NCBI GenBank assembly: GCA_022009775.1
Contig: CP091723.1
Span: 1,029,121 to 1,093,120, forward strand
DNA length: 64,000 bases
Direction of reading: 5' to 3'
Source: Christensenella sp.
Lineage (GTDB): Bacteria > Bacillota > Clostridia > Christensenellales > CAG-917
How positions within the stretch are numbered: position 1 is the stretch's first letter; every line of letters begins with the position of its first letter. Under the pieces are notes generated by a model that did not search any database, was not told the origin of the DNA, and worked only from the letters and a program-made list of their open reading frames with translations. The position numbers and the translations under genes are program-made. Below are positions 20,025 to 63,786 of the stretch, piece after piece.

Positions 20025-20149
20025 CGTGAGTAATCGCAAAAAGTGGCTCGAAATTAAAAATATTGCTAAAATTTCGTTGCCAAAATCGCATAATGTGATA
20101 TAATAACCAAGCAAGCGAAAATTAGAGGCTGAAAGGCCGCGAAATTCGT

Positions 20150-20225
20150 GGGGATATGGCTCAGTTGGTAGAGCGTCGCGTTCGCAATGCGAAGGTCAGG
20201 GGTTCGAATCCCCTTATCTCCACCA
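20150..20225 (+). tRNA. tRNA-Ala (anticodon CGC)
   Basis: 76-nt cloverleaf: acceptor GGGGATA/TATCTCC with G3:U70, D-arm GCTC-AGTTGGTA-GAGC, anticodon loop TTCGCAA, T-arm AGGGG-TTCGAAT-CCCCT, encoded CCA. Confidence 0.9.
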
Positions 20226-20260
20226 CAAAAATATCGTACAAATGTACGATATTTTTTTTA
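20226..20260. terminator. hairpin terminator after tRNA-Ala
   Basis: aaaaatatcgtacaaatgtacgatattttttttt: ~13-bp stem plus T-run. Confidence 0.5.
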
Positions 20261-20261
20261 T

Positions 20262-20537
20262 GTGGGATAGGGGATTCTCCACGATTTCATCGTGGTGTTG
20301 CTTTGCAACATGAACCCCTGCGGGCTGATAACAAACGAAGAGAGACGCAAGCGCGTAGCATTTGCGGACATCGAGTGCAGTCTCATAGCCAACAAATCAG
20401 ACACGAAGTGTCCGCGAAAGGCGCAGTGCAACGCACGATTTGTTGAGTGTAGACGCTCAGAGAAGTGAACAAGTTCACTCTCTTCGCTATTACGGAAGCG
20501 TCCAGGTCGCTTCCTACGAATCCCCTTATCTCCACCA
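20262..20537 (+). ncRNA. unclassified structured-RNA-like element, copy 1 (tRNA-acceptor-like closing helix plus ACCA tail)
   Basis: 213-bp core 20312-20524 is 98.6% identical to 30907-31119. The 5' GGGATAGGGGATT (20264-20276) pairs with AATCCCC-t-TATC-t-CC (20519-20533), followed by ACCA. Internal hairpins; terminator follows. Confidence 0.5.
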
Positions 20538-20540
20538 GTC

Positions 20541-20580
20541 AGAATACAAGTTGAACCCCTCAACTTGTATTCTTTTTTAT
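20541..20580 (+). terminator. rho-independent terminator following element copy 1
   Basis: agaatacaagttg / caacttgtattct 13-bp stem, loop aacccct, then tttttat. Confidence 0.6.
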
Positions 20581-20686
20581 GCTTTTTGGGAAAATTAAAG
20601 TTTCACGATGCAATAAAAAGGCTCGTTGACAAATATGCCTGTAATTTTGTCGTAACAAGAAATAGTCGTTGAATTTGAGTATAATA

Positions 20687-20712
20687 AAAGCCCTGACAAT
20701 CGTCAGGACTCT
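20687..20712 (-). terminator. terminator for araC-type regulator (minus strand)
   Basis: rc reads agtcctgac-gatt-gtcagggct followed by tttatta. Confidence 0.4.
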
Positions 20713-20794
20713 TTGTTATCGGGCTTGTAAATCGTATCTCGATTCTGTCATTATATAGTATTATTTGATCAACCAAATAGTTTATTATAAGGTT

Positions 20795-21660
20795 TTAGAT
20801 GGCTTTCATAAGGTGGAAATATTGCTTTGGAGTCAGGTCAAATTCCTTTTTGAAGGCGCGGAAAAAGTGGGTGTAGTCAGAGAATCCACAGCGCACGTAA
20901 ACGTCAGTTATGGACAGACCTTGCTCAATCAATTCCTTGGACATAAGCAGGCGTTTTTTCAGGATATAACTGTGGGGTGAAACGCCGGTTTCTTCCTTGA
21001 AAAGGTGGGCAAAATAATACTTGTTGGTATACAGTGCGTTTGATATGTCGTCAAGGGTGATTGGCTCGGTTAGATGCTCGGAAATATACTCGATTGCACG
21101 GGATATAATCTCGGATTGTTCCGCCTGTTTTGCTTGCCTGTTTTTAAGATAATGAGCACCTAAAAGGGTGAGGGCGGTGATGACGTGATTTTCTGCAGTC
21201 AAGTCCGCGCCAAAAGAGTTGGAGTTTTCATTTTCGATGACTGCAATAAGCTCGGTCACAAGTTTGTCAGAAAGAGCGGAGTTTCTCACAAGATAAGCAC
21301 CCTTTTCCTTTGCCTTTTGAAAGCAGGTGGCAAGGTCGGTTGAGGGGGGAGGAAAGACGCTTGACGTAGGCAGGATTTATCCACAGCACGATGCGGTCAT
21401 AGGACTTGCTTCCGTCCTTGACGTTGGGTTGGTGCAGATAGTTTGGGGGGGATGAGCAAAACGTCCCCCGCTTGCAAACGATATAGGCCGTCCTCAACGA
21501 TATAATCAACTGCCCCCCCGATGAAGCAGTATACCTCATAAAAATCGTGGGAGTGCATCTCAACGGTTTTGAAATACTTATCACGGTAAAGATTTACTTC
21601 GAAATCTTTCTTTGACATAAGCTGTGAAGATTGCCATTTTGTGGTGATATTTTCTCTCAT
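20795..21660 (-). CDS. AraC-family transcriptional regulator (cupin N-domain plus HTH), interrupted by at least 2 frameshifts at G7/C7 homopolymers
   Basis: Three ORF fragments in different frames: 21660-21397 cupin-like (HSHDFYEVY…AGDVLLIPP), 21584-21267 continuation (NYLHQPN…), 21289-20795 C-terminal AraC HTH (…YTHFFRAFKKEFDLTPKQY). Frame breaks coincide with G7 21344-21350, G7 21445-21451, C7 21513-21519. Confidence 0.7.
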
Positions 21661-21846
21661 AATTCAATTTTAATCCAATACAGCAAGATTTGCAAGTTAT
21701 TTCGCAATTTTGTCAATTTACTGACAAAAAATGCAGTAGTATAATACAACTATAAAGTGAATATTATCTCATCCATGCATACGCCGTTGTGGTTGCAAAA
21801 CGACCACAACGCTGCAAAAGACGCAACCTAAAAAAGGAAGAAAAAA

Positions 21847-23232
21847 ATGTTTTTTGACAATAAAGTTTTTCTTGAAAACGACAAAGCAGTGGAACTTTAC
21901 GAATACGCAAAGTCCCTGCCTATTTTTGATTATCACTGCCACCTTGCTCCCCAAGATATCCTTGGCGACAAGGTTTTTTCAAATTTGACGGAATTGTGGC
22001 TCAACGGCGACCACTACAAGTGGCGCATTATGAGAGCATACGGCGTTGACGAGAAGTTCATCACCGGTGACGGCGACGACAAAGAGAAGTTTTTCCGCTT
22101 TGCTGAGGCTTTGCCTCACTTCATCGGCAACCCTGTCTATCACTGGGCACACCTTGAACTGAAAAAGTATTTTGACCTCACTCTCCCTATTTGCCCTAAA
22201 AACGCAGAGGAGATTTGGACTCGCACCCTTGAAAAGATGGCTGACGGCAGTTTTTCTGCAAAGAAACTGATTGAACGTTCAAACGTTTGTGCAGTTGTCA
22301 CCACAGACGACCCCGTTGACGACCTTTCCGCCCATAGAGCAATTGCAGGTGAAGACAACCCCTTCAAGGTGCTTCCTTGTTTTAGAGCAGACCGTCTCAT
22401 CAACATCGACAAGCCTGACTATGCAGACTACGTCAAGAAACTGGGTGAAGTGGCAGGGGTTGAAATCAAAGGATTCAATGAACTTCTTGAAGCAGTTGAA
22501 AGACGCCTTGATTTCTTTGTGGCAAACGGCGCAACCGCAGTGGACATCGGCATGGAAGATTTCCCCTTTGGATACGGAGACGTCAGTAAATGCGACGACA
22601 TCATTAAAGATAGACTTGATGAAAAATTCATTGATGATGAAGACAAGGCGGAATTCCAGTTTACCCTTATGGCACACATTGCAAAGATGCTTCGTGACAG
22701 AGGCATGGTGATGCAACTGCACGTAGGTGTCATCCGCAACTGCAACACAGTCCTTTTTGACAGATGTGGCGTTGACGTGGGCGGTGACAGTGTGGCAAAC
22801 GTCCTCAACGTCAACAATGCAAGGGATTTCCTTGACTACGTTGAGCAAAACGGAGGCCTTCCTAAGACAATAATCTACACTCTGAATCCCACCGCCTATT
22901 ATCCTCTTGCCACCCTCATCGGGGACTTCCAAGGAGGAGAAAGAGGCAAGATTCAACTGGGTGCAGCTTGGTGGTTTATGGACCATCGTGACGGCATAAA
23001 AGAGCAGATGAGAGTGCTGGCTTCAACAGGCGGACTTGGTCTTTTCAACGGTATGCTCACAGACAGCAGAAGCTTCACCTCATACGCTCGACACGACTAT
23101 TTCCGCAGAATATTCTGCTCACTTGTTGGTGAGTGGGTTGAAAGCGGTGAATATCCCGACGACAAGGAAACCCTTGAAAATCTTGTGAAAAACGTTTGCA
23201 TTGACAATGCAAAAAAATATTTTGGAGTTTGA
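21847..23232 (+). CDS. uxaC: glucuronate (uronate) isomerase
   Basis: MFFDNKVFLENDKAVELYEYAKSLPIFDYHCHL…, UxaC N-terminal signature; 461 aa. Confidence 0.9.
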   Translation: MFFDNKVFLENDKAVELYEYAKSLPIFDYHCHLAPQDILGDKVFSNLTELWLNGDHYKWRIMRAYGVDEKFITGDGDDKEKFFRFAEALPHFIGNPVYHWAHLELKKYFDLTLPICPKNAEEIWTRTLEKMADGSFSAKKLIERSNVCAVVTTDDPVDDLSAHRAIAGEDNPFKVLPCFRADRLINIDKPDYADYVKKLGEVAGVEIKGFNELLEAVERRLDFFVANGATAVDIGMEDFPFGYGDVSKCDDIIKDRLDEKFIDDEDKAEFQFTLMAHIAKMLRDRGMVMQLHVGVIRNCNTVLFDRCGVDVGGDSVANVLNVNNARDFLDYVEQNGGLPKTIIYTLNPTAYYPLATLIGDFQGGERGKIQLGAAWWFMDHRDGIKEQMRVLASTGGLGLFNGMLTDSRSFTSYARHDYFRRIFCSLVGEWVESGEYPDDKETLENLVKNVCIDNAKKYFGV

Positions 23233-23233
23233 T

Positions 23234-24285
23234 ATGAAACTGACTTTTAGATGGTATGGTCTTGGTGACAGAATCCCCCTTGACTACATAAGACAAATCC
23301 CCAATATGTACAGTGTTGTGACAGCAGTCTACGACGTGCCCGTAGGCGAAGTGTGGCCCAGAGAAAGCATTGCAACTCTTGTGAGAGAAGCAGAGGCTCA
23401 CGGACTTAAAGCAGAAGTCATCGAGTCCGTTCCCGTCCACGAAGACATCAAACTTGGCCTCCCCACAAGAGACAAGTATATCGCCAACTACTGCGAGAAT
23501 ATTCGTCGTCTTGGTGAAGTGGGTGTCAAGTGCATTTGCTACAACTTCATGCCCGTCTTTGACTGGACAAGAACACAACTGGACAAGTTGGCAGAAGACG
23601 GCTCAACAAGCCTTGTATACTACGGCGAACAACTCGACGGCAAGGACCCTTTGGTTGATGATATGAACTTGCCCGGTTGGGACGCAAGTTATCAAAAAGA
23701 GGACTTAAAACGTCTGTTTGAGCAATATAAAGCCGTGGATAGTGAAAAGTTGTGGGAAAACCTTGGCTACTTCCTTGAACGCATAATCCCCGTTGCAGAG
23801 GAGTGTGGCATCAACATGGCAATCCACCCCGATGATCCACCGTGGGATATCTTTGGCCTGCCTCGTATCATCACCAACGAGAAGAATATCGACAGATTCC
23901 TCTCCCTTGTTGACAGCCCCAATAACGGTCTCACTTTCTGCACGGGCTCACTGGGTGCAGATAAAAACAACGACCTTGTTGCAATGGTCGACAAGTACGC
24001 AAAGATGGGCAGAATCCACTTTATGCACGTGAGAAATATCCGTGTCTTCGACAATGGATTTGAGGAGTGTGCTCACGACCAATCCGCAGGCACGCTTGAC
24101 ATCCTCGGCATTATGAAAGCCCTCTATGACAACAACTTTGACGGCTATCTCCGCCCCGACCACGGCAGAATGATTTGGGGGAAGAAGGCAAGCCCGGATA
24201 CGGTCTTTACGATAGAGCACTGGGCGCAAGTTATATCAACGGCGTATGGGAAACCCTCAACAGATTCAACAAGCAGTCAAAATAA
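23234..24285 (+). CDS. uxuA: mannonate dehydratase (one homopolymer frameshift near 24177-24181)
   Basis: [12 protein letters not shown]…[14 protein letters not shown]…AIHPDDPPW…[11 protein letters not shown] matches the E. coli UxuA blocks. After the G5 run the C-terminus continues in another frame ([32 protein letters not shown]), stop TAA at 24283-24285. ORF-track 23201..24445 is an artefactual fusion. Confidence 0.8.
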
Positions 24286-24319
24286 ATCGAAACAAAACCC
24301 TAAAAGGAAAAGGATAATT

Positions 24320-25163
24320 ATGAAAACACCTATCAGCATCAATTTGAACAATAAAGTTGTGGTCATCACAGGAGCAGGCGGAGTCATCTGCGGATGCCTT
24401 GCAAAGGCCCCTTGCATCAAACGGCGCAAAGGTTGCACTCCTTGACCTCAATCTTGAAGCAGCAGAGGCTGTGGCAAATGAAATAGTCGCAGAAGGCGGT
24501 GTGGCAAAGGCATACAAGACAAACGTCCTTGACAAGGAAAATCTTGAAGCCGTCCGTGAAGAAATTGAAAAGGATTTGGGTGTCACCGACATCCTCATCA
24601 ACGGCGCAGGCGGAAATAACCCTCGTGCCACCACGGACAATGAATACTGCACCTTTGAAAAACAAGTGGACAAGGACTTTTTTGACCTTGACGCAGGCGG
24701 GGTAAGATTTGTCTTTGAACTGAACTTCATCGGCAGTTTCCTCCCCACCCAAGTTTTCTGCAAAGGTATGGTTGGAAGAAAGGGCTGTTCCGTCCTGAAC
24801 ATTTCATCAATGAACGCCTTTACACCTCTCACCAAAATCCCTGCATACAGCGCGGCAAAGGCAGGCATCAGCAACTTTACAGAGTGGCTTGCAGTGCACT
24901 TTGCAAAGGTGGGCATCCGTGTCAACGCAATTGCACCGGGATTTTTTGTGACCAATCAAAACAGAGCATTGCTCTTTGACGCAGAGGGCAACGCAACTCC
25001 CAGAACAAAGAAAATTCTGAACGCAACCCCTATGGAAAGATTTGGCGAAGTTGAGGAACTTGTGGGCGCAACCCTCTTCCTTTTGAGTGAAGAAGCAGCA
25101 GGTTTCATCACTGGTGTAGTCCTTCCCATTGACGGCGGTTTCAGCGCATATTCAGGTGTGTAG
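24320..25163 (+). CDS. SDR-family oxidoreductase, probably D-mannonate/fructuronate reductase-like (one homopolymer frameshift near 24408-24411)
   Basis: ATG 24320 gives MKTPISINLNNKVVVITGAGGVI (Rossmann TGxxGxxG). The frame shifts at the C4 run and continues as LASNGAKVALLDLN… to the stop at 25163. YSAAKAG catalytic motif present. Sits between uxuA and eda. Confidence 0.7.
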
Positions 25164-25171
25164 AGGTGACT

Positions 25172-25785
25172 ATGGACTTTTCATTTTTCAACACAAACAA
25201 AAGTAGTGCCCGTTGTGGTGCTTAACAGCATTGACGAAACAATCCCCAAACTCAGCGCATTGAAGCGTGGGGGGCATCAACGTGGCGGAAATCACTTTCC
25301 GTACATCTTGTGCACCCGATTGCCTTGCACTGGCAGTCAAGACTTTCCCCGATATGCTTGTGGGCGTTGGCACAATCATCAATAGAGAACAATGCGTGAA
25401 GGCCCTTGACATTGGGGCAAAGTTTGTTGTGTCCCCCGGCTTTTCAAAGGAAGTGGCAGAAGAGTGTATCTCCCGTGACGTACCCTATATCCCCGGCGTC
25501 ATCACCCCCACAGAGGTTATGATGGCAAAGGCAGTTGGTCTCAACGTCCTCAAGTTTTTCCCTGCCAGTGACTTTGGCGGAATCAAAACAATGAAAGCAT
25601 TGTCAGCAGCATTTCCTGACGTCCGCTTTGTGCCTACAGGCGGTGTTGGTGAAAGCAATCTCCACGAATTCATTGGACAAAAATTTGTCATTGGCGCAGG
25701 TGGAAGCTGGATGATGAAAGGAACTGAAAGCGACATCGAAACCGCATCAAGACGTGCGGTGGAAATCGCAAAGGAGTATATATGA
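25172..25785 (+). CDS. eda: 2-dehydro-3-deoxyphosphogluconate (KDPG) aldolase (two homopolymer frameshifts near the 5' end)
   Basis: ATG 25172 MDFSFFNTNK, shift at A4 25199-25202 to VVPVVVLNSIDETIPKLSALKRGG, shift at G6 25268-25273 to INVAEITFRT…PGVITPTEVMMA…VKFFPA (Eda/KdgA family). Confidence 0.75.
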
Positions 25786-26801
25786 GAGTAATTACGTTTG
25801 GCGAAATTATGTTGCGTTTTGCCCCTGAGGGCTACAACCGTCTTTTCCAAACCCCTGTCCTCAACGGCACTTTTGGCGGCGGTGAAGCAAACGTTGCAGT
25901 GTCCATTGCAAACTTTGGCGGAGATGCCGCATTTGTGACAAAACTCCCTGAAAACGCAATCGCAGAAGCCTGCATCAGAGAGCTTCGTGGCTTTGGCGTT
26001 GACACAAAATTCATCGCACGTGGCGGTGCAAGAATGGGTGTCTATTATATGGAGAAGGGTGCATCTTGCCGTCCTTCAAACGTCATCTATGACAGAGCGC
26101 ACTCATCAATTTCAACAGCAACCGACAGCGACTTTGACTGGGACAAAATCTTCACCGGAGCAGACTGGTTCCACTTCACAGGCATCACTCCCGCCCTCAG
26201 TGATGAACTTGCCAAAGTGACCTTAAACGCACTTAAAGTTGCAAAAGCAAAGGGATTAAGCGTCAGTTGTGACCTTAACTACCGCAAAAAACTTTGGTCA
26301 AGAGAAAAGGCGAAAGAGGTTATGACAAGCCTTATGCCTTACGTTGACCTGTGCATTTGCAATGAGGAAGACGCAAAGGACGTCTTCGGTATTGAAGCGG
26401 ACGGCACCGACATTGAAAAGGGTGCATTGAGCCGTGAGGGATACGTGGGTGTAGCCAAAAAACTCACTGACAAATTCGGATTTAAGAAAGTGGCAATCAC
26501 TCTCCGCGAAAGTTTTTCAGCCAACGACAACGATTGGTCTGCAATGCTTTACGCTGACGGCGTAGCGCACTTCTCAAACAAATATTCACTGCACATCGTA
26601 GATAGAGTCGGTGGTGGTGACAGCTTTGGTGCAGGGCTCATCTACGGCCTCACCAACGGCTACACCAACCAAGACGCGCTCGAATTTGCAGTGGCAGCAA
26701 GCGCACTGAAACACACCATTGAAGGCGACTTCAATCGTGTCGGTGTCAAGGAAGTACAGTCACTCATCAAAAACGGCGGAAGCGGTAGAGTGCAAAGATA
26801 G
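25782..26801 (+). CDS. kdgK: 2-dehydro-3-deoxygluconokinase (PfkB family)
   Basis: MRVITFGEIMLRFAPEGYNRLFQ…GGEANVAVS, C-terminal GGGDSFGAG PfkB motif. ATGA overlap with eda. Confidence 0.85.
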   Translation: MRVITFGEIMLRFAPEGYNRLFQTPVLNGTFGGGEANVAVSIANFGGDAAFVTKLPENAIAEACIRELRGFGVDTKFIARGGARMGVYYMEKGASCRPSNVIYDRAHSSISTATDSDFDWDKIFTGADWFHFTGITPALSDELAKVTLNALKVAKAKGLSVSCDLNYRKKLWSREKAKEVMTSLMPYVDLCICNEEDAKDVFGIEADGTDIEKGALSREGYVGVAKKLTDKFGFKKVAITLRESFSANDNDWSAMLYADGVAHFSNKYSLHIVDRVGGGDSFGAGLIYGLTNGYTNQDALEFAVAASALKHTIEGDFNRVGVKEVQSLIKNGGSGRVQR

Positions 26802-26823
26802 ATTATAATAAAGGAGAGAATAT

Positions 26824-29088
26824 ATGAGCAGAGTACTTATCAACACAGGATGGCGTTTCTTCAAAAACTGCAACAGCATTGAAGAAATGGACGCAATTAA
26901 AAGCATCAAAGTCAATTTGCCCCACACTTGGAACAACCTTGACGGTCAAGACGGCGGAAACGATTATTTCCGTGGCAAGTGTTTCTACAGAAAGAAAATC
27001 GCTCTCACCAAAAAGGAAAACAAGGTGTATTATCTTGAATTCCGTGGTGTCAACGCAATGAGTGAAGTGTTTGTCAACGGCGTGTCCGTTGCATATCACG
27101 AAGGCGGTTTTTCAACCTTCCGTGCCAACATTACCGACCAACTTGTTGACGGCGAAAACACAATCATCGTGTCCGCAGACAACTCCGCAAACGACAGAGT
27201 CTATCCTCAAATGGCAGACTTCACTTTCTTTGGCGGTATCTACAGAAACGTGTATATCATCGAAGCACCCGCAGTGAGATTTGACCTTGACTATCTGGGC
27301 GGAGAAGGCGTTAAAGTGACACCCATCGTCAACGAAGACGGCAGTGCAACAGTCACGGTGGACAGCTATATCACCGGTGCAACCGACGGCGGGACAGTAA
27401 AGTGCGACATCCTCTTTGATGGCGAAGTGGTGGCAACGGCAGAAGCACCTGCAACTGCAAAAACAACCCTCACCTACACCCTTGAAAATCCCATTCTTTG
27501 GGACGGCGTTGAAAACCCTGCACTCTACACAGCAAAAGTCACTCTCACCACAGACAACGACAGCGATGAAAGAGTTGTCCGCTTTGGTGTCCGCACAATG
27601 AAGGCAGACAAAGACGGCTTCTGGCTCAACGGCAGAAAATATCCCCTCCACGGCGTATCCCGTCACCAAGACAGACAAGATATGGGTTGGGCAATCACCG
27701 AAAAGGAACACAAGGAAGACATCGACCTCATCAAAGAACTGGGCGCAAACACAATCCGTCTTGCACACTATCAACACGACCAATACTTCTATGACCTCTG
27801 CGACGAATACGGTATGGTGGTCTGGGCAGAAATCCCCTACATTTCATCACATCTTGCCAACGGCGATGAAAACGCAGTGAGCCAAATGAAGGAACTCATC
27901 ACACAAAACTACAACCACGCATCAATCTTCTGTTGGGGACTGAGCAATGAAATCACCATCACCGGTGAAAGTGAAGAGATGATGGCACTCCACCACAGAC
28001 TCAACGACCTTTGCCACGATATGGACAAAACTCGTCCCACAACCATGGCAAACGTGACAATGCTTGACATAACATCTCCCATCATCGACCTCCCCGACAT
28101 CATGTCATACAACCACTATTTCGGCTGGTATATGGGCGACGTCAACGGCAACGCAGAATGGCTTGACGACTTTAGAGCAGCACGCCCCGACAGAACAATC
28201 GGCATCAGCGAATACGGCTGTGAAGCAATCCTCACTTGGCACAACTCAGACCCCAAGCAAGGTGACTACAGTGAAGAATATCAAGCATATTATCACGAAA
28301 ACCTCCTCCGCATTTTTGCAGAACGTCCTTACCTCTGGGCAACCCACGTTTGGAATATGTTTGACTTCGGCGTTGACGGCAGAAACGAAGGCGGTGTTGC
28401 AGGACGCAACAACAAGGGCCTCGTCACTTACGATAGAAAGATAAAGAAGGACAGCTTCTACATCTACAAAGCATACTGGACCACCGATCCTTTCGTCCAC
28501 ATCACCTCAAAGAGATATTACTACCGTGCAGAAAAGACCACCACAGTCAAGGTGTACAGCAACTGCGACAAGGTGACTCTCTACGTCAATGGCAAGGAAT
28601 TTGCAACTCAAGAAGGCAAGTATATCTTCACCTTTGAAGTGCCTCTCAAGATTCTCGGTGCAACCAAGATCAAGGCAGTCAGCGGTGACGTCAGTGATGA
28701 AGCATCAATCAAGTACGTGAGAAAGCCTTATCAAGGATATATCTTGAAGACAGAAGCAAAGGTGGACAACTGGTTTGACAAAAACAATGAATTTGACTTC
28801 AAGTTCCCCGAAGGATATTTCTCAATCAAGGACAAACTTGGTAACATTATGGCAACCGAAGAAGGCGAAGCCCTCATCAATAGTCTTATAGACAGAGTGG
28901 TCAAAATCATGATGTCAGGCCCTGACAGCCAGTCAAAAGGCGAAGTGAAAATCAGCAAGGGTATGATGAAGCTTGCAAGCAGTATGACCATTGAACGTAT
29001 CGCAGGCTTGGCAGGAGACAAAGTGACAGCCGACATGCTCTTTGAAGTCAACGAAATGCTGAACAAAATCAAGAAGCCCCAAAAATAA
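26824..29088 (+). CDS. glycoside hydrolase family 2 enzyme, likely beta-glucuronidase given context
   Basis: GH2 blocks: sugar-binding N domain, NTIRLAHYQHDQYFYDLCDEYGMVVWAEIP, WGLSNEI catalytic region, extra C-terminal ~150 aa; 754 aa. Confidence 0.75.
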   Translation: MSRVLINTGWRFFKNCNSIEEMDAIKSIKVNLPHTWNNLDGQDGGNDYFRGKCFYRKKIALTKKENKVYYLEFRGVNAMSEVFVNGVSVAYHEGGFSTFRANITDQLVDGENTIIVSADNSANDRVYPQMADFTFFGGIYRNVYIIEAPAVRFDLDYLGGEGVKVTPIVNEDGSATVTVDSYITGATDGGTVKCDILFDGEVVATAEAPATAKTTLTYTLENPILWDGVENPALYTAKVTLTTDNDSDERVVRFGVRTMKADKDGFWLNGRKYPLHGVSRHQDRQDMGWAITEKEHKEDIDLIKELGANTIRLAHYQHDQYFYDLCDEYGMVVWAEIPYISSHLANGDENAVSQMKELITQNYNHASIFCWGLSNEITITGESEEMMALHHRLNDLCHDMDKTRPTTMANVTMLDITSPIIDLPDIMSYNHYFGWYMGDVNGNAEWLDDFRAARPDRTIGISEYGCEAILTWHNSDPKQGDYSEEYQAYYHENLLRIFAERPYLWATHVWNMFDFGVDGRNEGGVAGRNNKGLVTYDRKIKKDSFYIYKAYWTTDPFVHITSKRYYYRAEKTTTVKVYSNCDKVTLYVNGKEFATQEGKYIFTFEVPLKILGATKIKAVSGDVSDEASIKYVRKPYQGYILKTEAKVDNWFDKNNEFDFKFPEGYFSIKDKLGNIMATEEGEALINSLIDRVVKIMMSGPDSQSKGEVKISKGMMKLASSMTIERIAGLAGDKVTADMLFEVNEMLNKIKKPQK

Positions 29089-29106
29089 GCAAGGAAGGGA
29101 GATATT

Positions 29107-30813
29107 ATGAAAGAGAAGAAAATCAATACCCCCATTGATAGACCTTTTGGCAATAGAGATAAGATTGGATACATGATGGGCGACTTCGGTTGCAACATGA
29201 GTTTCCAACTTATCAGCAGTTTTTTGATGTTGTTTGTCACCCAAGGTCTTGGACTTACAATGGGACATTGGTCAATCATCGTCATCATTTCAAAGATTTT
29301 TGACGCAATCAACGATCCCATCATCGGCGCGTTGGTTGACGCAAGAAAGCCTGGTAGACGTGGCAAATATATTCCTTGGATTTTCTGTGGCGCCTTTGCA
29401 ATCGCACTTACGACGGTGCTTTTGTTCCTTGACGTCAGAGCACTCTCCTACTGGGGCAGATTTGCATACGTGCTTGTTATGTACTGTGTGTGGTCTGTTG
29501 CATACACCGCTGCAAACGTGCCTTACGGCTCGCTCAACGCAGCCCTCACCGACGATTCCGGTCACAGAGCATCACTTTCATCACTTCGCAGTATTGGCGC
29601 AGGCGTCGCAATGCTTCCTATGATGATCATCGTGCCTAGACTCATTTACGGCGAGGCAGATCCAGTCACAAATATCGAGCCTCTCCTTCCTGAGGTTTTC
29701 GTGTGGGTAGCACTGGCTTGTGGGGTTGCTGCAATCGGCGGATTTATGCTCACTTGCTTCCTTACGAAAGAAAGAAAACAAGTTGAAAAACCCAAAGAAA
29801 AATTCAACTATCTTCAAACGCTCAAAGGCTTTGTCACAAACCGTGCTGCACTCGGTATGTGTCTTGCATCATTCAGCCAACTTGTGTTTGTCATGTCCTA
29901 CGCAACCACTTTGCCTCTCGTGTGTCAACTCTTCTTCGGTGACGCAAAGGCGTCAGGCACGGTCGGCATCGTCATGATGTTGCCTATGATGTTCGTCATC
30001 CCCTTTATGGGCAAACTTACAAGAAAGTTCGGAAAGAAAGAGATTGCAATGTGGCCCAACTTGGTGGCAATCGCCGTGCTTGTGATTATGCTGATCATTC
30101 CTTTCCCCAGAACAAGCGCAGGTATGTGGGCATACGCAGCTTGCCTCGGCGTTGCAATGTTGGCATCAGCTCCCTTGAACCTTGGCACTTGGTCAATGGT
30201 GGCAGACTGTGTTGACGAGCAAGAAGTGAGGACAGCAAAGAAAGACGGCAAAAACCTCTACGCAACCTACCTCACAAAAGAGCAATTCGGCAAGCGTGAC
30301 GAAGCAAGTGTGTACGCAACTTACTCCCTTGCGAGAAAGGCAGCACAAGGGATAGGCTCTGCGCTGGTGGCAGCCCTTGCAGGCTTGGTTGGATTTGACT
30401 CGACAAACGTCCAAGCAACCACTCCTCAAACTTCACAAAACCTGTTGACCCTGTCCATTGTACTTCCTTTGGTTGGTTCAATCCTCATCTTCGTGGCATT
30501 CTTCTGTGTGTACAACCTGAACAAGAAAAAGGTCATCGAGAACACGGAATTCCTCCGCGATAAGAACGCACGTATTGCAATCCAACTTGCAAAGGGAGCA
30601 CAACCAGACGACGGAACGGACGAAGCAGAAGTCATCACTTTTGGCAACGTGATAGAAGAAGTTTCAACTGAAACAGAACCTGCCCCCCGCCCAAGCATAA
30701 CCAAAAATCAATCAACAAAAAACGGACTGATTTTAGTCCGTTTTTTTGTTGTGCCGATGAATATTAATTTTGATTGTTTTGACAAAACGAATGGTTTATT
30801 TTGTCGGTTTTGA
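29107..30813 (+). CDS. MFS transporter, glycoside-pentoside-hexuronide:cation symporter (GPH) family
   Basis: MGDFGCNMSFQLISSFLMLFVTQGLGL…DAINDPIIGALVDAR, a typical MelB/UidB-like N-terminus; 12 predicted TM helices; 568 aa. Confidence 0.8.
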   Translation: MKEKKINTPIDRPFGNRDKIGYMMGDFGCNMSFQLISSFLMLFVTQGLGLTMGHWSIIVIISKIFDAINDPIIGALVDARKPGRRGKYIPWIFCGAFAIALTTVLLFLDVRALSYWGRFAYVLVMYCVWSVAYTAANVPYGSLNAALTDDSGHRASLSSLRSIGAGVAMLPMMIIVPRLIYGEADPVTNIEPLLPEVFVWVALACGVAAIGGFMLTCFLTKERKQVEKPKEKFNYLQTLKGFVTNRAALGMCLASFSQLVFVMSYATTLPLVCQLFFGDAKASGTVGIVMMLPMMFVIPFMGKLTRKFGKKEIAMWPNLVAIAVLVIMLIIPFPRTSAGMWAYAACLGVAMLASAPLNLGTWSMVADCVDEQEVRTAKKDGKNLYATYLTKEQFGKRDEASVYATYSLARKAAQGIGSALVAALAGLVGFDSTNVQATTPQTSQNLLTLSIVLPLVGSILIFVAFFCVYNLNKKKVIENTEFLRDKNARIAIQLAKGAQPDDGTDEAEVITFGNVIEEVSTETEPAPRPSITKNQSTKNGLILVRFFVVPMNINFDCFDKTNGLFCRF

Positions 30814-30850
30814 CATTTAAAATATTGATTAATCAAACAAGTATTTTTGT

Positions 30851-31132
30851 GGGGGAATAAGTGGATTGTGCGATTTTTCAAAAATCGCACCACGGTTTCA
30901 CCGTGCGAACCCCTTCGGGCTGATAACAAACGAAGAGAGACGCAAGCGCGTAGCATTTGCGGACATCGAGTGCAGTCTCATAGCCAACAAATCAGACACG
31001 AAGTGTCCGCGAAAGGCGCAGTGCAACGCACGATTTGTTGAGCGTAGACGCTCAGAGAAGTGAACAGGTTCACTCTCTTCGCTATTACGGAAGCGTCCAG
31101 GTCGCTTCCTACGAATCCCTTTGTTTCCATCA
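30851..31132 (+). ncRNA. unclassified structured-RNA-like element, copy 2
   Basis: Core 30907-31119 differs from copy 1 at 3 of 213 positions. Flanks differ but keep pairing: 5' GGGAATAAG-t-GGATT (30853-30867) with AATCC-c-TTTGTTTCC (31114-31128), then ATCA. 5' hairpins gtgcgatttttcaaaaatcgcac and cacggtttcaccgtg replace the copy-1 hairpins. Confidence 0.5.
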
Positions 31133-31173
31133 CAAAAGTCGTGCTTGCACGGCTTTATATAAAAGGCGGTATA

Positions 31174-31203
31174 TTGACAAGTGTATAAAATATACTGTAT
31201 AAT
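31174..31203 (+). promoter_or_regulatory. sigma70-type promoter of SPFH/flotillin gene
   Basis: TTGACA 31174-31179, 18-nt spacer, TATAAT 31198-31203; RBS aaggagg precedes ATG 31259. Confidence 0.5.
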
Positions 31204-31258
31204 AATTTTGATGTGGGAGTTCGGGCGATGACCCGAACGAAACTAAAGGAGGAACAAA

Positions 31259-32743
31259 ATGATAACAATGACGTTAGCGTCGTCGGCAGCGTGGATAGTC
31301 CCCGTTGCTGTGATCGGTGCTTTGATCGTAGTAGGGGCGTTGGTGTTCTTTATCGGCGGATATATGAAAGCACCGCCGGACACTGCATACATAATTTCGG
31401 GCAGGGGCAAACGCCGTATTCTCATAGGAAAAGCAGGTTGGCGTATCCTATTTTTCGAGCGCGTGGACAAACTCTCTTTGCAAGTCATGCAAGTTGACGT
31501 AAAGACAAGCGAAGCAGTCCCGACGAACGAATTTATCAACGTCAACGTTGACGGCGTTGCAAATATCAAGATATCGTCCGACCCCGTGCTTCTCGACCGC
31601 GCGGCAGAAGCACTTTTGGGCATGGACCAAGAAGAACTCGTGAGTCTCGTCACACAGGTGCTCGAAGGCAATATGCGTGAAATCGTCGGTTCTGTCGGAC
31701 TCAAAGAAATGGTTCAGGACCGTCAGGGAGTTGCAAAGAAAATTACTGAAAACGTCGTTCCCGATATGGAAAAACTCGGCATCGAAGTGGTGAATTTCAA
31801 CATTCAGAACTTCAAAGACAATGCCGGCACGATTGAAAACATGGGTATCGACAACGTCGAGCAAATCCGCAAAAACGCACAAATTGCAAAAGCGAACGCA
31901 CAGCGCGACATCGCAATCGCAACCGCTCACGCCGAAGAAGAAGCAAACGCCGTGAAGGTGGAGACGCAAAAGAAGATTGCAGAACAGAATGCGGAACTCA
32001 CCGTTCAGAAAGCGGAAATGCAAATCAAAGCGGACAACAAACGCGCAGAAGCGGACGCGGCGTATTCTATTCAACAAGAGACGCAGCGCAAGACGATTGA
32101 AATCACAGCCGCAAACGCTAATATCGCAAAGAAAGAGAAAGAAGCGGAAATCGCAGAGCGCGAGATTTCGATCAAGGAAAAACAACTCGACGCCGAAATC
32201 AGAAAACAAGCGGACGCTATGCTTTACAAGACCGAAAAGGAAGCGGAAGCAGAACTTATTCGCCGCCAGAAAATAGCGGAAGCGCAAAAGTTTGAACAAA
32301 TCAAGGCGGCAGAAGCAAAGAAATACGAAGCAATGCAGGAAGCGGAAGCAAAAAGGCTATCGCCGATGCGCAACGCTACGCAATGGAGCAGGAAGCGGCA
32401 GGTATCAAAGCCAAGGGTGAAGCGGAAGCAAACGCAATCGACAAAAAGGGCTCTTGCGCAAAAGAAGATGGGCGAAGCGTCCGTCATCGAAATGTACTTG
32501 CAGGCACTTCCCGAAGTCGTCAAATCCGCCGCTATGCCGCTTGCTCAAACGGACAAAATCGTCATGTACGGAGACGGAAATTCCACGAAACTCATCAAGG
32601 ACGTCATGCAGGGTGCAAATCAGGTCATTGACGGCATGAAAGAGTCTACGGGTATCGATCTCGGCGCACTTTTGGCAGGCGCAATCGCAGGCAAAGCGGC
32701 GGCATCACCAAAAGCAAGCGACAATTCCGACAAAGCGGAATAA
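31259..32743 (+). CDS. SPFH-domain / flotillin-like protein (two compensating homopolymer frameshifts within 32350-32450)
   Basis: N-terminal TM segment, SPFH core, long AEA/EAEA-rich coiled coil. A 36-aa K/R-rich out-of-frame stretch (SPMRNATQWSRKRQ…) is restored by reading AIADAQRYAMEQEAAGIKAKGEAEANAIDKK in the alternate frame (ORF 32383..). Confidence 0.75.
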   Translation: MITMTLASSAAWIVPVAVIGALIVVGALVFFIGGYMKAPPDTAYIISGRGKRRILIGKAGWRILFFERVDKLSLQVMQVDVKTSEAVPTNEFINVNVDGVANIKISSDPVLLDRAAEALLGMDQEELVSLVTQVLEGNMREIVGSVGLKEMVQDRQGVAKKITENVVPDMEKLGIEVVNFNIQNFKDNAGTIENMGIDNVEQIRKNAQIAKANAQRDIAIATAHAEEEANAVKVETQKKIAEQNAELTVQKAEMQIKADNKRAEADAAYSIQQETQRKTIEITAANANIAKKEKEAEIAEREISIKEKQLDAEIRKQADAMLYKTEKEAEAELIRRQKIAEAQKFEQIKAAEAKKYEAMQEAEAKRLSPMRNATQWSRKRQVSKPRVKRKQTQSTKRALAQKKMGEASVIEMYLQALPEVVKSAAMPLAQTDKIVMYGDGNSTKLIKDVMQGANQVIDGMKESTGIDLGALLAGAIAGKAAASPKASDNSDKAE

Positions 32744-36175: not shown

Positions 36176-38141
36176 TCAAAAACCGAGTTTTATTTTCTTT
36201 TCGATTTGGAAAGAGAAGTCTTTTTCGCTCGCCGCGTTGTTGAAGTCTACGGCGCAAAGCGTCACGGTTTTTTGACTTTCGAGTTGACTTCTCATAGCCG
36301 CTTTCGCCCACGTTCTTTCAAAAAGATTTCGCACGAAGCGCGCGTTGCTGAATTTCTTTGAGTTCAGAACGTCGTCTGACAGGTTTTCAAAGTATTTTTG
36401 AACGATAGGGTACAAGTCGTCTGCGATTTTGAATTTTTTCGACGACATCGATTTGTATATCTCGAAGAGCTGCTCGCGCGTGAAGTTTGGAAACTCGATC
36501 GTGTAGGGCATTCTGCTTTTTAAGCCCCTGTTGGCGTCCATGAGCTTTTCCATATCGTCGGTGTAGCCTGCCATTATGACTACGAGATCGTCTTTGTGGT
36601 TTTCCATCTCGGATATGAGCGTGTCGATTGCCTCAACGCCGTAGTCGCGCATGTTGTCGTCTCCGCGATAGAGAGAGTACGCCTCGTCGATAAAAAGCAC
36701 CGATCCGTATGCATCGCGGCACATTCCTGACGTTTTGGGCGCGGTTTCTCCGATGTATTGACCGCAGAAATCTCTGCCTTTGTATTCGTATAGATTGCCT
36801 ATGCGCAGCACGCCTTTTTCTTTGAGAATCTTGCCGAGTATTCTCGCAACGGTGGTTTTGCCCGTGCCGGGATTTCCGACAAAGCGCATGTGTAGGCAAG
36901 GGCGGTCAGGTCCGTTTTCCGCCTTGGACAAGCGTATTTGCGCAATGATTTCTTCAATTTGAGCTTTGATTTTTTCGCACCCGACAAGTTGGTCGAGTTG
37001 CGCCATGCCTTCCGATTCGTCTGCAAGAGTGTCGCATATCTTCTTTGCGTCGTTCGTTCCTATGAGCGATGCGTTCTTTGCGCCGTTTGCCACGGCAACG
37101 TATTTTTGTATACGGATTCTTTTACGACTTTCTTTATGGTGTTCAATCCGTAAAATTTGCCGTCGCTTTTTTCCTTGGCGATACGCTTGAAGAAATACTC
37201 CCACGCATTGTCCGACATTTTCATGCCGTATTTTTCAAAGTCGCGTTTTGCGATTTCTTTCGTTTCGGCACGGTCAAAGGGCGGAAAAGACAAAGTCTTG
37301 ATATAAGCCACGTCTTTGAGCGAGTTTTCCACGCGACCGAGCACGTCCTTGTCAACAAAAGGCACTCTGAACACGATGACGTGATTTTCGCTTGCCTTTT
37401 GCACGTCTTTGAGCAACTTTTTGAAGTCTTCGGAGTCGGTCTTGTCAATCCACTTGCTTATATCGAAGCATATCACGCTAGCCTCGTCGTTTTCGATTTT
37501 TCCGATGACGTCGCTTGCGTCGTTCAAATCGTCTTTGGGCTTGTCCGTCATCTTGATTTTGTATTCTTTGACGGGTGCGATAGGTGTCATTTTGGCAAGC
37601 GACAGATCGTTTATGGCAAGCGCAAGTATTTCAAGATATGTTGTCAGTCCGCATCCGTCACCGACAGAGAAGAGATAGCTTTGGGACATAAACACGTCTT
37701 GCGCATTGTTTTTGACCACTTCGGGTGCAATCGCCACAAGTTCTTTTATAAGGCTTTTGAATTCTTGCGCGCCGACAAGCGTGTTGACAAGCTCGAGCGT
37801 GTCGTCAATTGTGTGCGGATCTTGCGACTTGCCGCTGTTGTCGGAATCTTTGTTTTTTGACTCGTCGTTTTCAACGTCCGTATTTGGCTCGCAATCGGAA
37901 AAACTCAATGCCGAAAGATTTGTCTTTCCGTATTTTTGCGCAAAGAACGTCGAAATTTTGTTTTTGTTTTTTCGTAGTCGTTTTCGTCGACCGCAAGCGT
38001 CAGGTGAAGATAAGATTCGTTGATTTTTTCGATTTTGCCTTTCACAAACCTGTCTTTCAGCACTTCGACGGGGTATTTTGCGTCGTCAATGCGAGTCAGC
38101 ACCCAGTTGTAGTCGAGTTCTATACGCAACGTTTTTTTCAT
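36176..38141 (-). CDS. SpoVK/CbbX-type AAA+ ATPase with an N-terminal ~75-aa domain and a degenerate first AAA module (two homopolymer frameshifts)
   Basis: Three ORF fragments (38141-37905, 37908-37060, 37204-36176) join into one ~650-aa protein when the frame is corrected at the T6 run ~37967-37972 and the T5 run ~37103-37107. The first module has GDGCGLTT in place of Walker A. The second has GNPGTGKTTVARILGKIL, LFIDEAYSL, and a SpoVK/CbbX lid. Confidence 0.75.
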
Positions 38142-38312
38142 AGTTTACCTTTCAAAAATTTTGATATAAAACATTATACAATACGATTGCCGACTTTTAC
38201 AATATTTTTTTATTGAGAATTTTGCTTTTAGAAATAATGCGCCTTACGGCTGGATGTTTTGATTGCGCTTAGGATGACACGGAGAATTTTGAATTTTACC
38301 GATTATTTCAAA

Positions 38313-38877
38313 TCGGGTGTGGGTGTCCCGCCCGCTTGAATATACCAAGCCGACAATCTTGCGAAATTGTGGCAGGAGTTTTTGTCCGTGATTGAACTGA
38401 TAGCAAAGATTTTCGGCGCGGTTAGAAGAACAAAAGCCTAATGCGGCTCTCAGCGTTGCTTGCTTTCAAGCGATGCCGTTGCCGCAATGACGGCTTTTGT
38501 TCGGGTGTGGGTGTCCCACCCAATCGAAAGTACCAAGCCGACAATCTTGCGAAATTGCGGCAGGAGTTTTTATCCGTGACCAGACTGATAGCAAAGATTT
38601 TCGGCGCGATAGTGGCGGCAAAACCTAGTTTGGCTCTCCGCAATGGGCAGGTGATTGCCCGTTGCGGTTGCCAAAACAACGGCATAAAATCGGGTGTGGG
38701 TGTCCCGCCCGCTTGAATATACCAAGTCGACAATCTTGCGGGATTGCGACAGGAGTTTTTGCCCGTGACTGAACCGATAGCAAAGATTTTCGGCGCGGTT
38801 AGCAGAACAAAAGCCTAATGTGGCTCTCGGCGTTGCTTGCTTGTAAGCGATGCCGTTGCCACAATAACGGCTTTTGT
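38313..38877. repeat. three tandem ~188-bp direct repeats (units 38313-38500, 38501-38689, 38690-38877)
   Basis: Each unit begins tcgggtgtgggtgtccc(g/a)ccc…accaag(c/t)cgacaatcttgcg…caggagttttt…gatagcaaagattttcggcgcg. Units 1 and 3 end with gccgtt-N-aacggc-ttttgtt terminator-like hairpins. Unit 2 diverges in its 3' half. Confidence 0.85.
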
Positions 38878-62516: not shown

Positions 62517-62607
62517 GGAAGTGTATCGAAGTGGTCATAACGGCCCGCACTCGAAATGCGGTAACGGGGTAACTCGTTCGTGGGTTCGAATCCCACCGCT
62601 TCCGCCA
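62517..62607 (+). tRNA. tRNA-Ser (anticodon CGA), class II with long variable arm
   Basis: Acceptor GGAAGTG/CGCTTCC, anticodon stem CCGCA/TGCGG with loop CTCGAAA, variable arm ~18 nt, T-arm GTGGG-TTCGAAT-CCCAC, discriminator G, CCA. Confidence 0.85.
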
Positions 62608-62616
62608 TTAGTGAAT

Positions 62617-62660
62617 AATACGAACCCTGACGATAAGTTAGAGTTCGTATTGTTCTTTTC
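62617..62660 (+). terminator. terminator after tRNA-Ser
   Basis: aatacgaac…gttcgtatt stem followed by gttctttt. Confidence 0.5.
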
Positions 62661-62823
62661 TAACGAATATTTCGGCATAAAAGTCGATTTGAACGGCAAA
62701 AAGAAGAATCAGCCGGGCGTTTAATCGCCCGCCAAAGTGTCTTGAAGTTTTTCAAGAATTCTACGTTCGCAAACTCAATAGCGGTTGAAAAATTTTAAGA
62801 AGTGTGCTATAATATAAAAAAAT

Positions 62824-63786
62824 ATGGAGGCATACGGTGTGTATAATCAATTCATAACAGCGGCGTCGGATTTAGTAACCACGTACGAACAAACAAGGGC
62901 AGGATTTCTTAGCATTGCTCTTGAAAAAAATATGATAAGTGACCCTTATGTAAAACGCGCATTGGCCTTTAAAGCATTAGTTGCAAATACTACCGGACCT
63001 GATGATTTAATTGAGATGACAGAAGTTAGACCTTTTATGCTTACCGCATCGGGTTTATCTGACAAATCTATGCAATATCTTTCGGAGACGGATAAAACAA
63101 ATGCGATAATGGAATTAGTAGAAAAATTCTTAAAACCAGCAGGAACTAATTATATTGATGAGGTAATCTATAGATATCTTTTAATAAAAGGTGATGCTGT
63201 TGGTGGAACTATGCGTAATAGAATTGGAGCTTTAGGACAAGAACGATTAATTAGAGCCTTAATTTCGTGTATGAATGTAATGGGTTTTGATTATAAATGG
63301 TTGTCAAATAGCAGTTGTATTTGGCAGGATAAAAAAGACAATGATTTAGGTATAGAAAAAGATTTAAAAGCGATATATTGGAATAATGGATATGAGGACA
63401 GGGTATTAGGATTTAATCTTAATATCCCCATAGTTTCAAAGAATGTTGATATTTGCCTGTTTAATGCTACAACATCTTTATACAACAAGGGTAAGATAGT
63501 CTCAATGCCGCAATGTACACTTATGTTAGGAGAATTGAAAGGCGGTATTGACCCTGCTGGTGCTGACGAACATTGGAAAACTGCCAATACTGCACTAGGA
63601 CGTATTCGGACTGCATTTCATAATGCAAATTTGCCAATAAAAACCACATTTATAGGAGCAGCAATAGCCACAGCTATGTCAATTGAGATATATCAACAAT
63701 TGTCTGACGGCACATTGGATAATGCCGCCAACTTGACAAATTTAAACCAACTGACGGATTATTGTAACTGGATATTAACAGTATGA
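62824..63786 (+). CDS. hypothetical protein in AT-rich tRNA-adjacent islet (restriction-endonuclease role is speculation from context only)
   Basis: 320-aa ORF with GC well below the window average (rich in TTA/ATA/AGA codons), no recognisable motif. Lies between tRNA-Ser and a truncated gene whose N-terminus only loosely recalls an amino-methyltransferase. Confidence 0.3.
   Translation: MEAYGVYNQFITAASDLVTTYEQTRAGFLSIALEKNMISDPYVKRALAFKALVANTTGPDDLIEMTEVRPFMLTASGLSDKSMQYLSETDKTNAIMELVEKFLKPAGTNYIDEVIYRYLLIKGDAVGGTMRNRIGALGQERLIRALISCMNVMGFDYKWLSNSSCIWQDKKDNDLGIEKDLKAIYWNNGYEDRVLGFNLNIPIVSKNVDICLFNATTSLYNKGKIVSMPQCTLMLGELKGGIDPAGADEHWKTANTALGRIRTAFHNANLPIKTTFIGAAIATAMSIEIYQQLSDGTLDNAANLTNLNQLTDYCNWILTV

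Follow-up and report, generated by a model that had tools for sequence, protein, structure and literature searches.

In a 64,000-nt stretch of the Christensenella sp. contig CP091723.1 (hereafter the window), the gene for tRNA-Ala(CGC) is followed by two long direct repeats with eight hexuronate and glucuronide utilization genes between them, which raises the question of whether the repeats are the two scars of a single tRNA-targeted insertion. A first-pass annotation had read them in this way, as the border footprint of an integrated island. The genes between the repeats do behave as an island, being variable among strains and shared between species. The repeats, however, are the cores of two different neighbouring modular units, not the scars of one insertion, and units of the same family are found behind many other tRNA and transfer-messenger RNA (tmRNA) genes.

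Two modular units behind tRNA-Ala(CGC)

The tRNA-Ala(CGC) gene occupies positions 20150-20225 of the forward strand (ARAGORN; 72.5 bits with the Rfam tRNA model) and has a clear promoter-like site at 20077-20104. A repeat finder and blastn recovered one long direct-repeat family, with only two copies in the window, at 20312-20537 and 30907-31132. Each measures 226 nt, rather than the 213 bp given previously, and 219 of the 226 positions are identical (97%); the second copy lies in direct orientation about 10.6 kb downstream of the first, as had been noted, with a start-to-start spacing of 10,595 nt. The terminus of copy 1 (20517-20537, CGAATCCCCTTATCTCCACCA) reproduces the tRNA from the T-loop through CCA (20205-20225) at 21 of 21 positions, in agreement with the first-pass annotation, whereas that of copy 2 (31112-31132, CGAATCCCTTTGTTTCCATCA) has diverged and matches at 17 of 21. 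The last 21 nt of the tRNA gene are the first attachment site (att)-like copy at the locus, and direct repeats of a tRNA end bordering DNA that lies 3' of the tRNA are what is seen at tRNA-targeted islands.

Copy 1 had been placed immediately 3' of the tRNA, but 86 nt intervene, and these belong to the same unit. They comprise a terminator hairpin, a 17-nt arm antisense to the tRNA end and two small hairpins, giving an overall layout of terminator, antisense arm, hairpins HP1 and HP2, core and 21-nt copy of the tRNA end. A full unit begins right after a CCA end, and its own terminus is also CCA. In unit 1 (type 1), a terminator scan placed the opening hairpin and T-run at 20226-20260 (stem 20227-20256), a piece that opens every type-1 unit in the related contigs L001, L008 and L137 described below. 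The remaining 5' part, at 20261-20311 (inverted repeat I1; RNAfold), holds the arm (20261-20277), HP1 (20279-20295) and HP2 (20296-20310), and repeat copy 1 is the conserved core, with a perfect tRNA-end copy at its terminus. RNAduplex gives -25.0 kcal/mol for the arm paired with its own 3' end, rank 1 of 14. Unit 2 (type 2) repeats this architecture with different sequences, homologous to those of tmRNA-type units: its 5' part at 30844-30906 consists of the arm (30844-30868), HP1' (30868-30890) and HP2' (30891-30905), and repeat copy 2 is its core, with the diverged att at the terminus. All of these features lie on the forward strand, and both full units are predicted by RNAfold to form a multi-branched fold closed by pairing of the arm with the 3' end (z-scores of -5.4 and -5.5).

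The terminator of the second cassette stands at the left end of the cargo, within 20538-20600 of the forward strand (terminator scan), as a hairpin at 20541-20573 together with a possible remnant of a type-2 arm; the hairpin is 81% similar to the terminator that opens an empty type-2 unit in L137, and the same left boundary is found in L008. The window array consists of an empty type-1 cassette (20226-20537) and then a loaded type-2 cassette (20538-31132), in which the cargo sits between the terminator and the arm. The left repeat lies outside the island, in the adjacent, separate unit. Of the border-footprint interpretation, the tRNA-end repeats at the borders are retained, but not the pairing of the two long repeats as the ends of one insert. 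Beyond the array, the chromosomal flank (31133-31258, forward strand) contains a small hairpin at about 31138-31153 and a clear promoter-like site (31174-31203) for the flotillin gene at 31259-32743; the same flank lies 3' of the last unit in L001 and L137.

Several other identities were considered for the units and set aside. They are not coding sequences: their reading frames are not conserved, because the spacer differs by 1 nt between subtypes, and the open reading frames (ORFs) called there are spurious. A primer-binding-site or T-box-like role for the antisense arm was rejected because its complementarity is imperfect and bulged and no T-box match was obtained. A transposon, miniature inverted-repeat element or insertion sequence does not fit two copies in 64 kb, sites linked to tRNA and tmRNA genes, and the lack of a transposase nearby; among the ORFs tested near units, none encodes a transposase. 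We also dropped the argument that each arm matches its own att, since L137 shows that the diverged att depends on position.

A strain-variable cargo shared between species

Pfam and NCBIfam confirm the gene content proposed for the DNA between the repeats. An AraC-family regulator on the reverse strand (20795-21660; Pfam and ORFs) is followed on the forward strand by uxaC (21847-23232), the uxuA ORF (23201-24445), a short-chain dehydrogenase/reductase ORF that passes the NCBIfam cutoff for D-mannonate oxidoreductase (24357-25163), eda (25267-25785), kdgK (25782-26801), a glycoside hydrolase family 2 (GH2) gene whose best model is beta-glucuronidase, below the cutoff (26824-29088), and a GPH-family symporter gene (29107-30813). 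From these assignments, the cargo is predicted to encode a complete route from glucuronide to pyruvate and glyceraldehyde-3-phosphate, by way of glucuronate, fructuronate, mannonate, 2-keto-3-deoxygluconate (KDG) and 2-keto-3-deoxy-6-phosphogluconate (KDPG). As the first-pass annotation had stated, there is no integrase gene, either among the island ORFs, all of which are metabolic or regulatory, or among the other window ORFs tested.

Some reading frames in the window differ from those of near-identical contigs by single-base indels, mostly in homopolymers (21349, 21451, 24182, 24411, 25202, 25274, 30683, 32355, 32447 and others). Relative to the gut-metagenome contig L126, where the AraC homolog is an intact protein of 273 aa, the regulator is broken into three frames by two 1-nt homopolymer indels, Eda is shortened and the GPH symporter is extended. 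UxuA is extended too, and indels relative to L001 are also present in the flanks, where about 30 codons of the flotillin gene are shifted. These differences are probably long-read assembly errors rather than true pseudogenes, and they probably also account for the lack of an exact-protein match for the flotillin and the GPH symporter of the window.

Close homologs of the flotillin protein led to three informative contigs. The flanks of L001 are 98.6% identical to the window and those of L137 97.9-98.1%, an identity of about 98% that makes both conspecific with it. In each, secA, prfB, tsaD and tRNA-Ala are followed by the flotillin gene within approximately 600-700 nt, and the hexuronate genes are absent. 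The proposed empty site, with tRNA-Ala leading to flotillin without cargo, is therefore found, but it still holds two units. In L001, the first unit is of type 1, carries an internal deletion in its core and ends in a perfect att; a full hybrid unit, with a 5' part of type 1 and the diverged att, comes next and is followed by the flotillin gene. In L137, tRNA-Ala is followed by a terminator and an empty type-2 unit that is 97.6% identical to window positions 30842-31137 but ends in a perfect att. The next unit, of type 1, is cut short at a TCGTG microhomology and joined there to the sequence upstream of the flotillin gene. Three conspecific strains thus have three arrays, with the order in L137 (type 2, then type 1) reversed relative to the window. 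In all three, the diverged att comes last, beside the same chromosomal flank.

The third contig, L008, is a 75-kb contig of the metagenome-assembled genome UMGS1043, which represents a different species, and was compared with the window from the left flank to the start of the island. Identity is 89.5% in secA, 88.1% in prfB, 86.2% in tsaD and 82.3% in the tsaD-tRNA spacer, and jumps exactly at the tRNA (100%), continuing at 97.1% in the terminator, 98.0% in the 5' part of the unit, 98.0% in the core and 100% in the att. L008 then carries an extra 1.86-kb segment with a degenerate tRNA-end remnant at its end, after which the island starts at 98.7% identity. The left boundary of the island is the same as in the window, GTCAGAATACAAG following directly on CCACC(A/G). 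The tRNA-end-like sequence before it differs: the window has the perfect att there, and L008 a T-arm/acceptor remnant that is degenerate and lacks a core. The operon is present in full, at 98.8% identity, in two contigs from gut metagenomes, L126 and L130; in the L126 alignment, the homology of the cargo stops at window position 30843. More distant homologs of the transporter (77-79%) lie in unrelated sugar clusters.

The composition comparison suggested earlier gave a divided answer: the tetranucleotide signature of the island is the strongest outlier in 64 kb (L1 distance in 5-kb windows of 0.33-0.36, versus 0.11-0.22 elsewhere in the window), but its GC content (46.6%, versus 47.9% for the rest of the window) is not deviant. 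Presence/absence polymorphism and foreign composition are both features of tRNA-targeted islands. Collectively, the absence of the cargo from L001 and L137, its identity across species, its outlier signature and the discontinuity at the tRNA establish it as accessory DNA that is strain-variable, compositionally foreign and horizontally shared between species, in support of the original island reading.

These observations leave little room for an ancestral operon that was deleted in L001 and L137, with the repeats being an old, immobile local duplication. Deletion between direct repeats is easy and the GC content of the island is close to that of its surroundings, but an ancestral operon would not be expected to be 98.7-98.8% identical between genomes whose flanking genes are at 86-90%, to be the strongest tetranucleotide outlier in the window, to have a different right junction in L126 and L130, or to have its distant transporter homologs in unrelated sugar clusters; we regard this scenario as very improbable. 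Even less credit can be given to an assembly artefact in which the island was misjoined here through the 226-nt repeat. Short-read contigs L126 and L130 do break near units, and the homopolymer indels suggest an error-prone assembly. However, the independent contig L008 joins tRNA-Ala, unit 1 and the island start via unique sequence, each copy in the window has a 5' part and an att end of its own and is continuous with unique flanks, and the homopolymer errors suggest long-read data, for which 226 nt would be no obstacle.

A unit family matched to tRNA and tmRNA genes

The same architecture recurs well beyond this locus. A blastn match in a scaffold mislabelled as 'phage' (L006) revealed it behind tRNA-Arg(ACG), with the last 21 nt again equal to the tRNA end, and pattern scans recovered 5 loci in species-representative genomes and 113 in human-gut metagenome contigs; the metagenome pattern missed units of the Ala(CGC) type, whose spacer is 1 nt shorter. 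Elements were found behind tRNA-Val(GAC) (20), tRNA-Arg(CCG) (19), tRNA-Ala(GGC) (15), tRNA-Ser(TGA) (8), tRNA-Ser(GCT) (3), tRNA-Arg(ACG) (2) and tRNA-Leu(CAG) (2), and a further 50 had no tRNA called upstream in the locus, many of them merely lying at contig edges. Several of these 50 are directly 3' of tmRNA genes, four of which were confirmed by Rfam. In human-gut Clostridia, at least nine tRNA/tmRNA gene types, including Ala(CGC) and tmRNA, host units, and single contigs can carry them at two different loci. Most copies with readable upstream sequence follow a tRNA or tmRNA gene or an att-like remnant. Many end in an exact 21-nt copy of the end of their own gene, while others are tandem, truncated, internally deleted, or placed after cargo that ends in degenerate att remnants. 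The concern that the repeats might be a generic dispersed repeat is thus answered: the family occurs at many loci, but it is tRNA/tmRNA-linked and has locus-specific ends.

The match to the host gene extends to the 5' arm, which pairs with the 3' end of its own type at a mean of -19.5 kcal/mol, versus -12.4 kcal/mol (standard deviation 3.7) for other types; with one exception, every unit has its own end among the top three of 14. For an alignment of 11 sequences from six tRNA/tmRNA gene types, RNAalifold gave a core structure of 39 pairs, in 11 of which both partners vary; the proportion of pairing cells is 98.3%, versus 24-41% when the partners are slid, and 0 of 500 shuffles reached the observed score, figures to be read in light of the structure having been derived from that same alignment. 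Three hairpins, which are swapped between subtypes, are enclosed by a CAAC-N4/N4-GTTG helix, and, judging from invariant G-U pairs, it is the tRNA-sense strand that folds. Unit structure is conserved, shows covariation and corresponds to the tRNA beside which each unit lies.

Matches to known RNA families were not obtained. Rfam 15, whose families include tmRNA, T-box, GOLLD, ROOL, 6S and RNase P, was searched with the window, L006 and L007 and left the core unmatched at the gathering score or at E<=10, and the only gathering-score matches in the window were tRNAs. The core is not a tmRNA either: ARAGORN found none in the window, and a 26-bit 'permuted tmRNA' match consists of the tRNA T-arm and the antisense arm. 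The closing stem, which ends in NCCA, looks like an acceptor/T-stem minihelix; this suggests that the units are probably stable structured RNAs, made by read-through of the tRNA terminator and trimmed like a tRNA. GOLLD and ROOL, large structured RNAs that often lie beside tRNA genes and sometimes in prophages (PMC5737381), are similar in being structured non-coding elements that often adjoin tRNA genes. The units are much smaller, show no Rfam match at permissive thresholds, and carry a copy and a complement of the tRNA end, a trait that the accessible part of PMC5737381 does not mention for GOLLD or ROOL.

The family was not found on plasmids, and in 2.9 million viral contigs the pattern behind the 113 loci matched one and an Ala(CGC)-type pattern none. 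A phage or plasmid origin was rejected, there being no plasmid match and the sole 'phage' record being a bacterial scaffold. No published description of the unit family was found in the literature.

Units also vary internally. In 'mini' units (L001 9404-9563 and L010 6360-6510), a core of approximately 150 nt is cleanly gone while arm, hairpins and att are kept, apparently by a deletion with short direct repeats, for example GACCGCAAG and GACCGAAGG, as its end points. An accessory domain of approximately 110 nt, GGGGACCCC...GGAGCACACAAGCAAAAGAGTGAGC...GTGTGCGAC, follows the core in some units and precedes it in others; it is carried by L006 (6170-6290), L007/L129 and the Val-type units L017, L048 and L122, and in Val-type units part of it is reverse-complemented. 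This variation in position and orientation makes the units themselves mosaics. Approximately 150 nt upstream of a tmRNA-type unit, in L049 and L097, four direct repeats of TGTACGCA are spaced by about 20 nt; they overlap a TTGACA promoter-like hexamer, adjoin a 184-aa ORF and resemble operator, iteron or arm-type sites.

Proposed movement of the cassettes

How, then, did the cargo come to lie inside one of two neighbouring units? In our reading, the region 3' of tRNA-Ala(CGC) is an array of cassettes, each opening with a terminator directly after a CCA end and closing with a folded module of approximately 280 nt made up of arm, two hairpins, core and 21-nt tRNA-end copy; the load of the type-2 cassette is the 10.3-kb glucuronide-to-KDPG catabolic operon. 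In the mechanism that we propose, a recombinase encoded elsewhere would act on the 21-bp tRNA-end repeats, and the resulting site-specific recombination would let cassettes enter, leave and change places; the likeliest candidate would be the tyrosine integrase of a prophage or of an integrative and conjugative element (ICE) using the same tRNA end. The diverged last att would be the displaced and decaying original tRNA end, and a RecA-mediated crossover between the 97%-identical cores could also delete cargo. We consider it likely, on the comparisons of arrays made here, that the cassettes move in this manner, by a recombinase acting in trans on the 21-bp repeats, with the cores additionally allowing RecA-mediated deletion. 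Tandem att-bounded segments are present in the window, L001, L008, L010 and L137. The diverged att, always last and at the same flank, fits the displaced original end of a classical tRNA-site integration, and unequal crossing-over would hardly produce the order reversal seen in L137 relative to the window, which is expected from independent integrations at att.

The proposed mode of movement resembles that of cis-mobilizable elements (CIMEs), which are att-flanked segments lacking recombination and transfer genes; in the accretion arrays of streptococci (ICESt1/ICESt3-type), they stand in tandem at one site and are presumably mobilized by an element that integrates at the same att. The island, likewise, is att-flanked, has no recombination or transfer modules, and occurs among tandem segments. 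In contrast to CIMEs, the tRNA-Ala(CGC) end yielded neither a cognate ICE nor a cognate prophage, and the 'empty' units are only about 310 bp long with a conserved, covarying fold, so that they do not resemble mere deletion remnants. With tRNA- and tmRNA-targeted islands and prophages that use tyrosine integrases, the locus shares the position 3' of a tRNA, T-loop-to-CCA repeats at the borders, a terminator supplied by the incoming DNA, a decayed distal repeat, the use of tmRNA as a target, strain-variable presence and foreign composition. It differs in that the island has no integrase or excisionase and that its borders carry a structured module of approximately 280 nt, which also occurs alone, in tandem or truncated at many tRNA genes.

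Recombinases do occur in the vicinity of some units. In L072, a tyrosine integrase and a CI-like repressor lie at the end of a prophage whose distal att, 29 nt of the 3' part of tRNA-Ala(GGC), is followed by a terminator, a unit and an att, and in L129 an integrase remnant lies beside a Ser-type att. Large serine recombinases are encoded in L129 (1386-4491, two adjacent genes) and L097 (7665-9317, one gene), within 1-2 kb of arrays of Ser-type and tmRNA-type units. The 70 non-redundant neighbour ORFs include DpnII, HamA, DUF4238 and a Mob_Pre relaxase.

Five observations weigh against movement by a recombinase acting in trans. No recombinase for the tRNA-Ala(CGC) end was found among the window ORFs tested, the 70 neighbour ORFs or by a motif scan. 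Most units have a tRNA on one side and housekeeping genes (pntAB, P-type ATPase, ABC transporters) on the other, with no mobile gene nearby, and could equally be resident RNA genes. Neither unit in the window has a promoter-like site of its own. Past window position 30843, L126 and L130 have no unit; a 118-aa ORF stands there instead, together with a terminator and a degenerate att. Finally, the hybrid unit of L001 is equally expected from homologous recombination.

The last point leads to the alternative in which the units are resident, vertically inherited small-RNA genes that only supply portable homology. The operon would have been gained by RecA-dependent recombination with foreign DNA that carried similar units, and would be lost through a crossover between the two 226-nt cores, with no site-specific recombinase involved. 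The cores are suited to such exchange, being 97% identical across 226 nt within the window and 93-98% identical between species, above their flanks; an integrase is lacking in the island and near most units; mini-units arose from internal deletions at microhomologies; and the distal unit of L001, with its type-1 5' part and diverged att, is the product of a core-core crossover on this account. Homology between cores, however, does not readily explain why unit order is reversed between the window and the conspecific L137, why boundaries fall at the CCA end even after degenerate att remnants that have no core (L008, L010 and L126), why the non-coding terminator is 97% identical between species when the adjacent spacer is at 82%, or why one core stands behind nine different genes, each time with matched ends. 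We judge homologous recombination by itself the main alternative, but a less likely one. Deletion of cargo by this route, suggested in the first-pass annotation, is plausible given that L001 has the architecture expected of a recombinant between copies 1 and 2, but the core single-nucleotide polymorphisms (SNPs) are mosaic; the diagnostic ones are too few, and do not decide between insertion and deletion. Gene order without the repeats in related genomes had been named as counter-evidence in the first-pass annotation; L126 and L130 have the operon without the right-hand unit.

If the cassettes move by a recombinase acting in trans, the units might go further than CIMEs and be the recombination sites of an unrecognized tRNA-anchored, integron-like cassette system in gut Clostridia, a suggestion that we offer with considerable reserve. 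The unit of approximately 280 nt would then act, as single-stranded DNA or as RNA, as a self-contained, target-matched attachment element that allows a trans recombinase to insert, excise and reorder cargo, or nothing, behind one particular tRNA or tmRNA gene; the core would be the part that binds the recombinase or a cofactor, and the arm a programmable target-recognition part. Like integron arrays and clusters of attC sites lacking integron integrases (CALINs), the arrays consist of unidirectional promoterless modules beside a fixed platform, each module ending in an imperfect, bulged stem, with an order that varies among strains and a recombinase that is not inside the modules. Unlike in integrons, IntI, attI and Pc are absent, the array is headed by a tRNA gene with tsaD, prfB and secA upstream, and most modules have no gene. 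The attC sites of integrons (57-141 nt, with R''/L''-L'/R' boxes and a GTTRRRY core) differ from the units, which are approximately 280 nt long with a conserved core and tRNA-derived ends, and no attC-like Rfam family matched the window.

Elsewhere in the window, a BsoBI-type restriction endonuclease gene (62824-63786; Pfam E 1e-120), within the region 62517-63786, follows tRNA-Ser(CGA) at a distance of approximately 200 nt, with a terminator-like hairpin in between, and the last 5 kb have a lower GC content (0.447) and a raised tetranucleotide distance (0.20). This region may represent another accessory segment linked to a tRNA; the unit family has no visible member near the gene (62517-63786). 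Upstream of the S10 ribosomal-protein operon, 38310-38871 contains three copies of a 188-nt tandem repeat (75% matches), a segment that is apparently single in L001. Between the phosphoenolpyruvate carboxykinase gene and the S10 operon, in L001 as well, an AAA ATPase gene (36176-37204, reverse strand) with a faint BrxC/BrxD-like match stands next to two small ORFs without a family.

The island itself is an ordinary one, a tRNA-linked accessory module for sugar-acid catabolism, with relevance to the microbial beta-glucuronidase activity of the gut: a glucuronide-to-KDPG module is spreading among human-gut Clostridia. The greater interest lies in the bounding units, in which tRNA-matched ends, a conserved core and cassette arrays without a recombinase come together, a combination that we did not find described. 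If the units are RNAs, they would constitute a new class of RNAs, with ends that mimic the tRNA next to them. If they are mobile cassettes, they would represent a new way for tRNA genes to serve as platforms for gene capture in Firmicutes.

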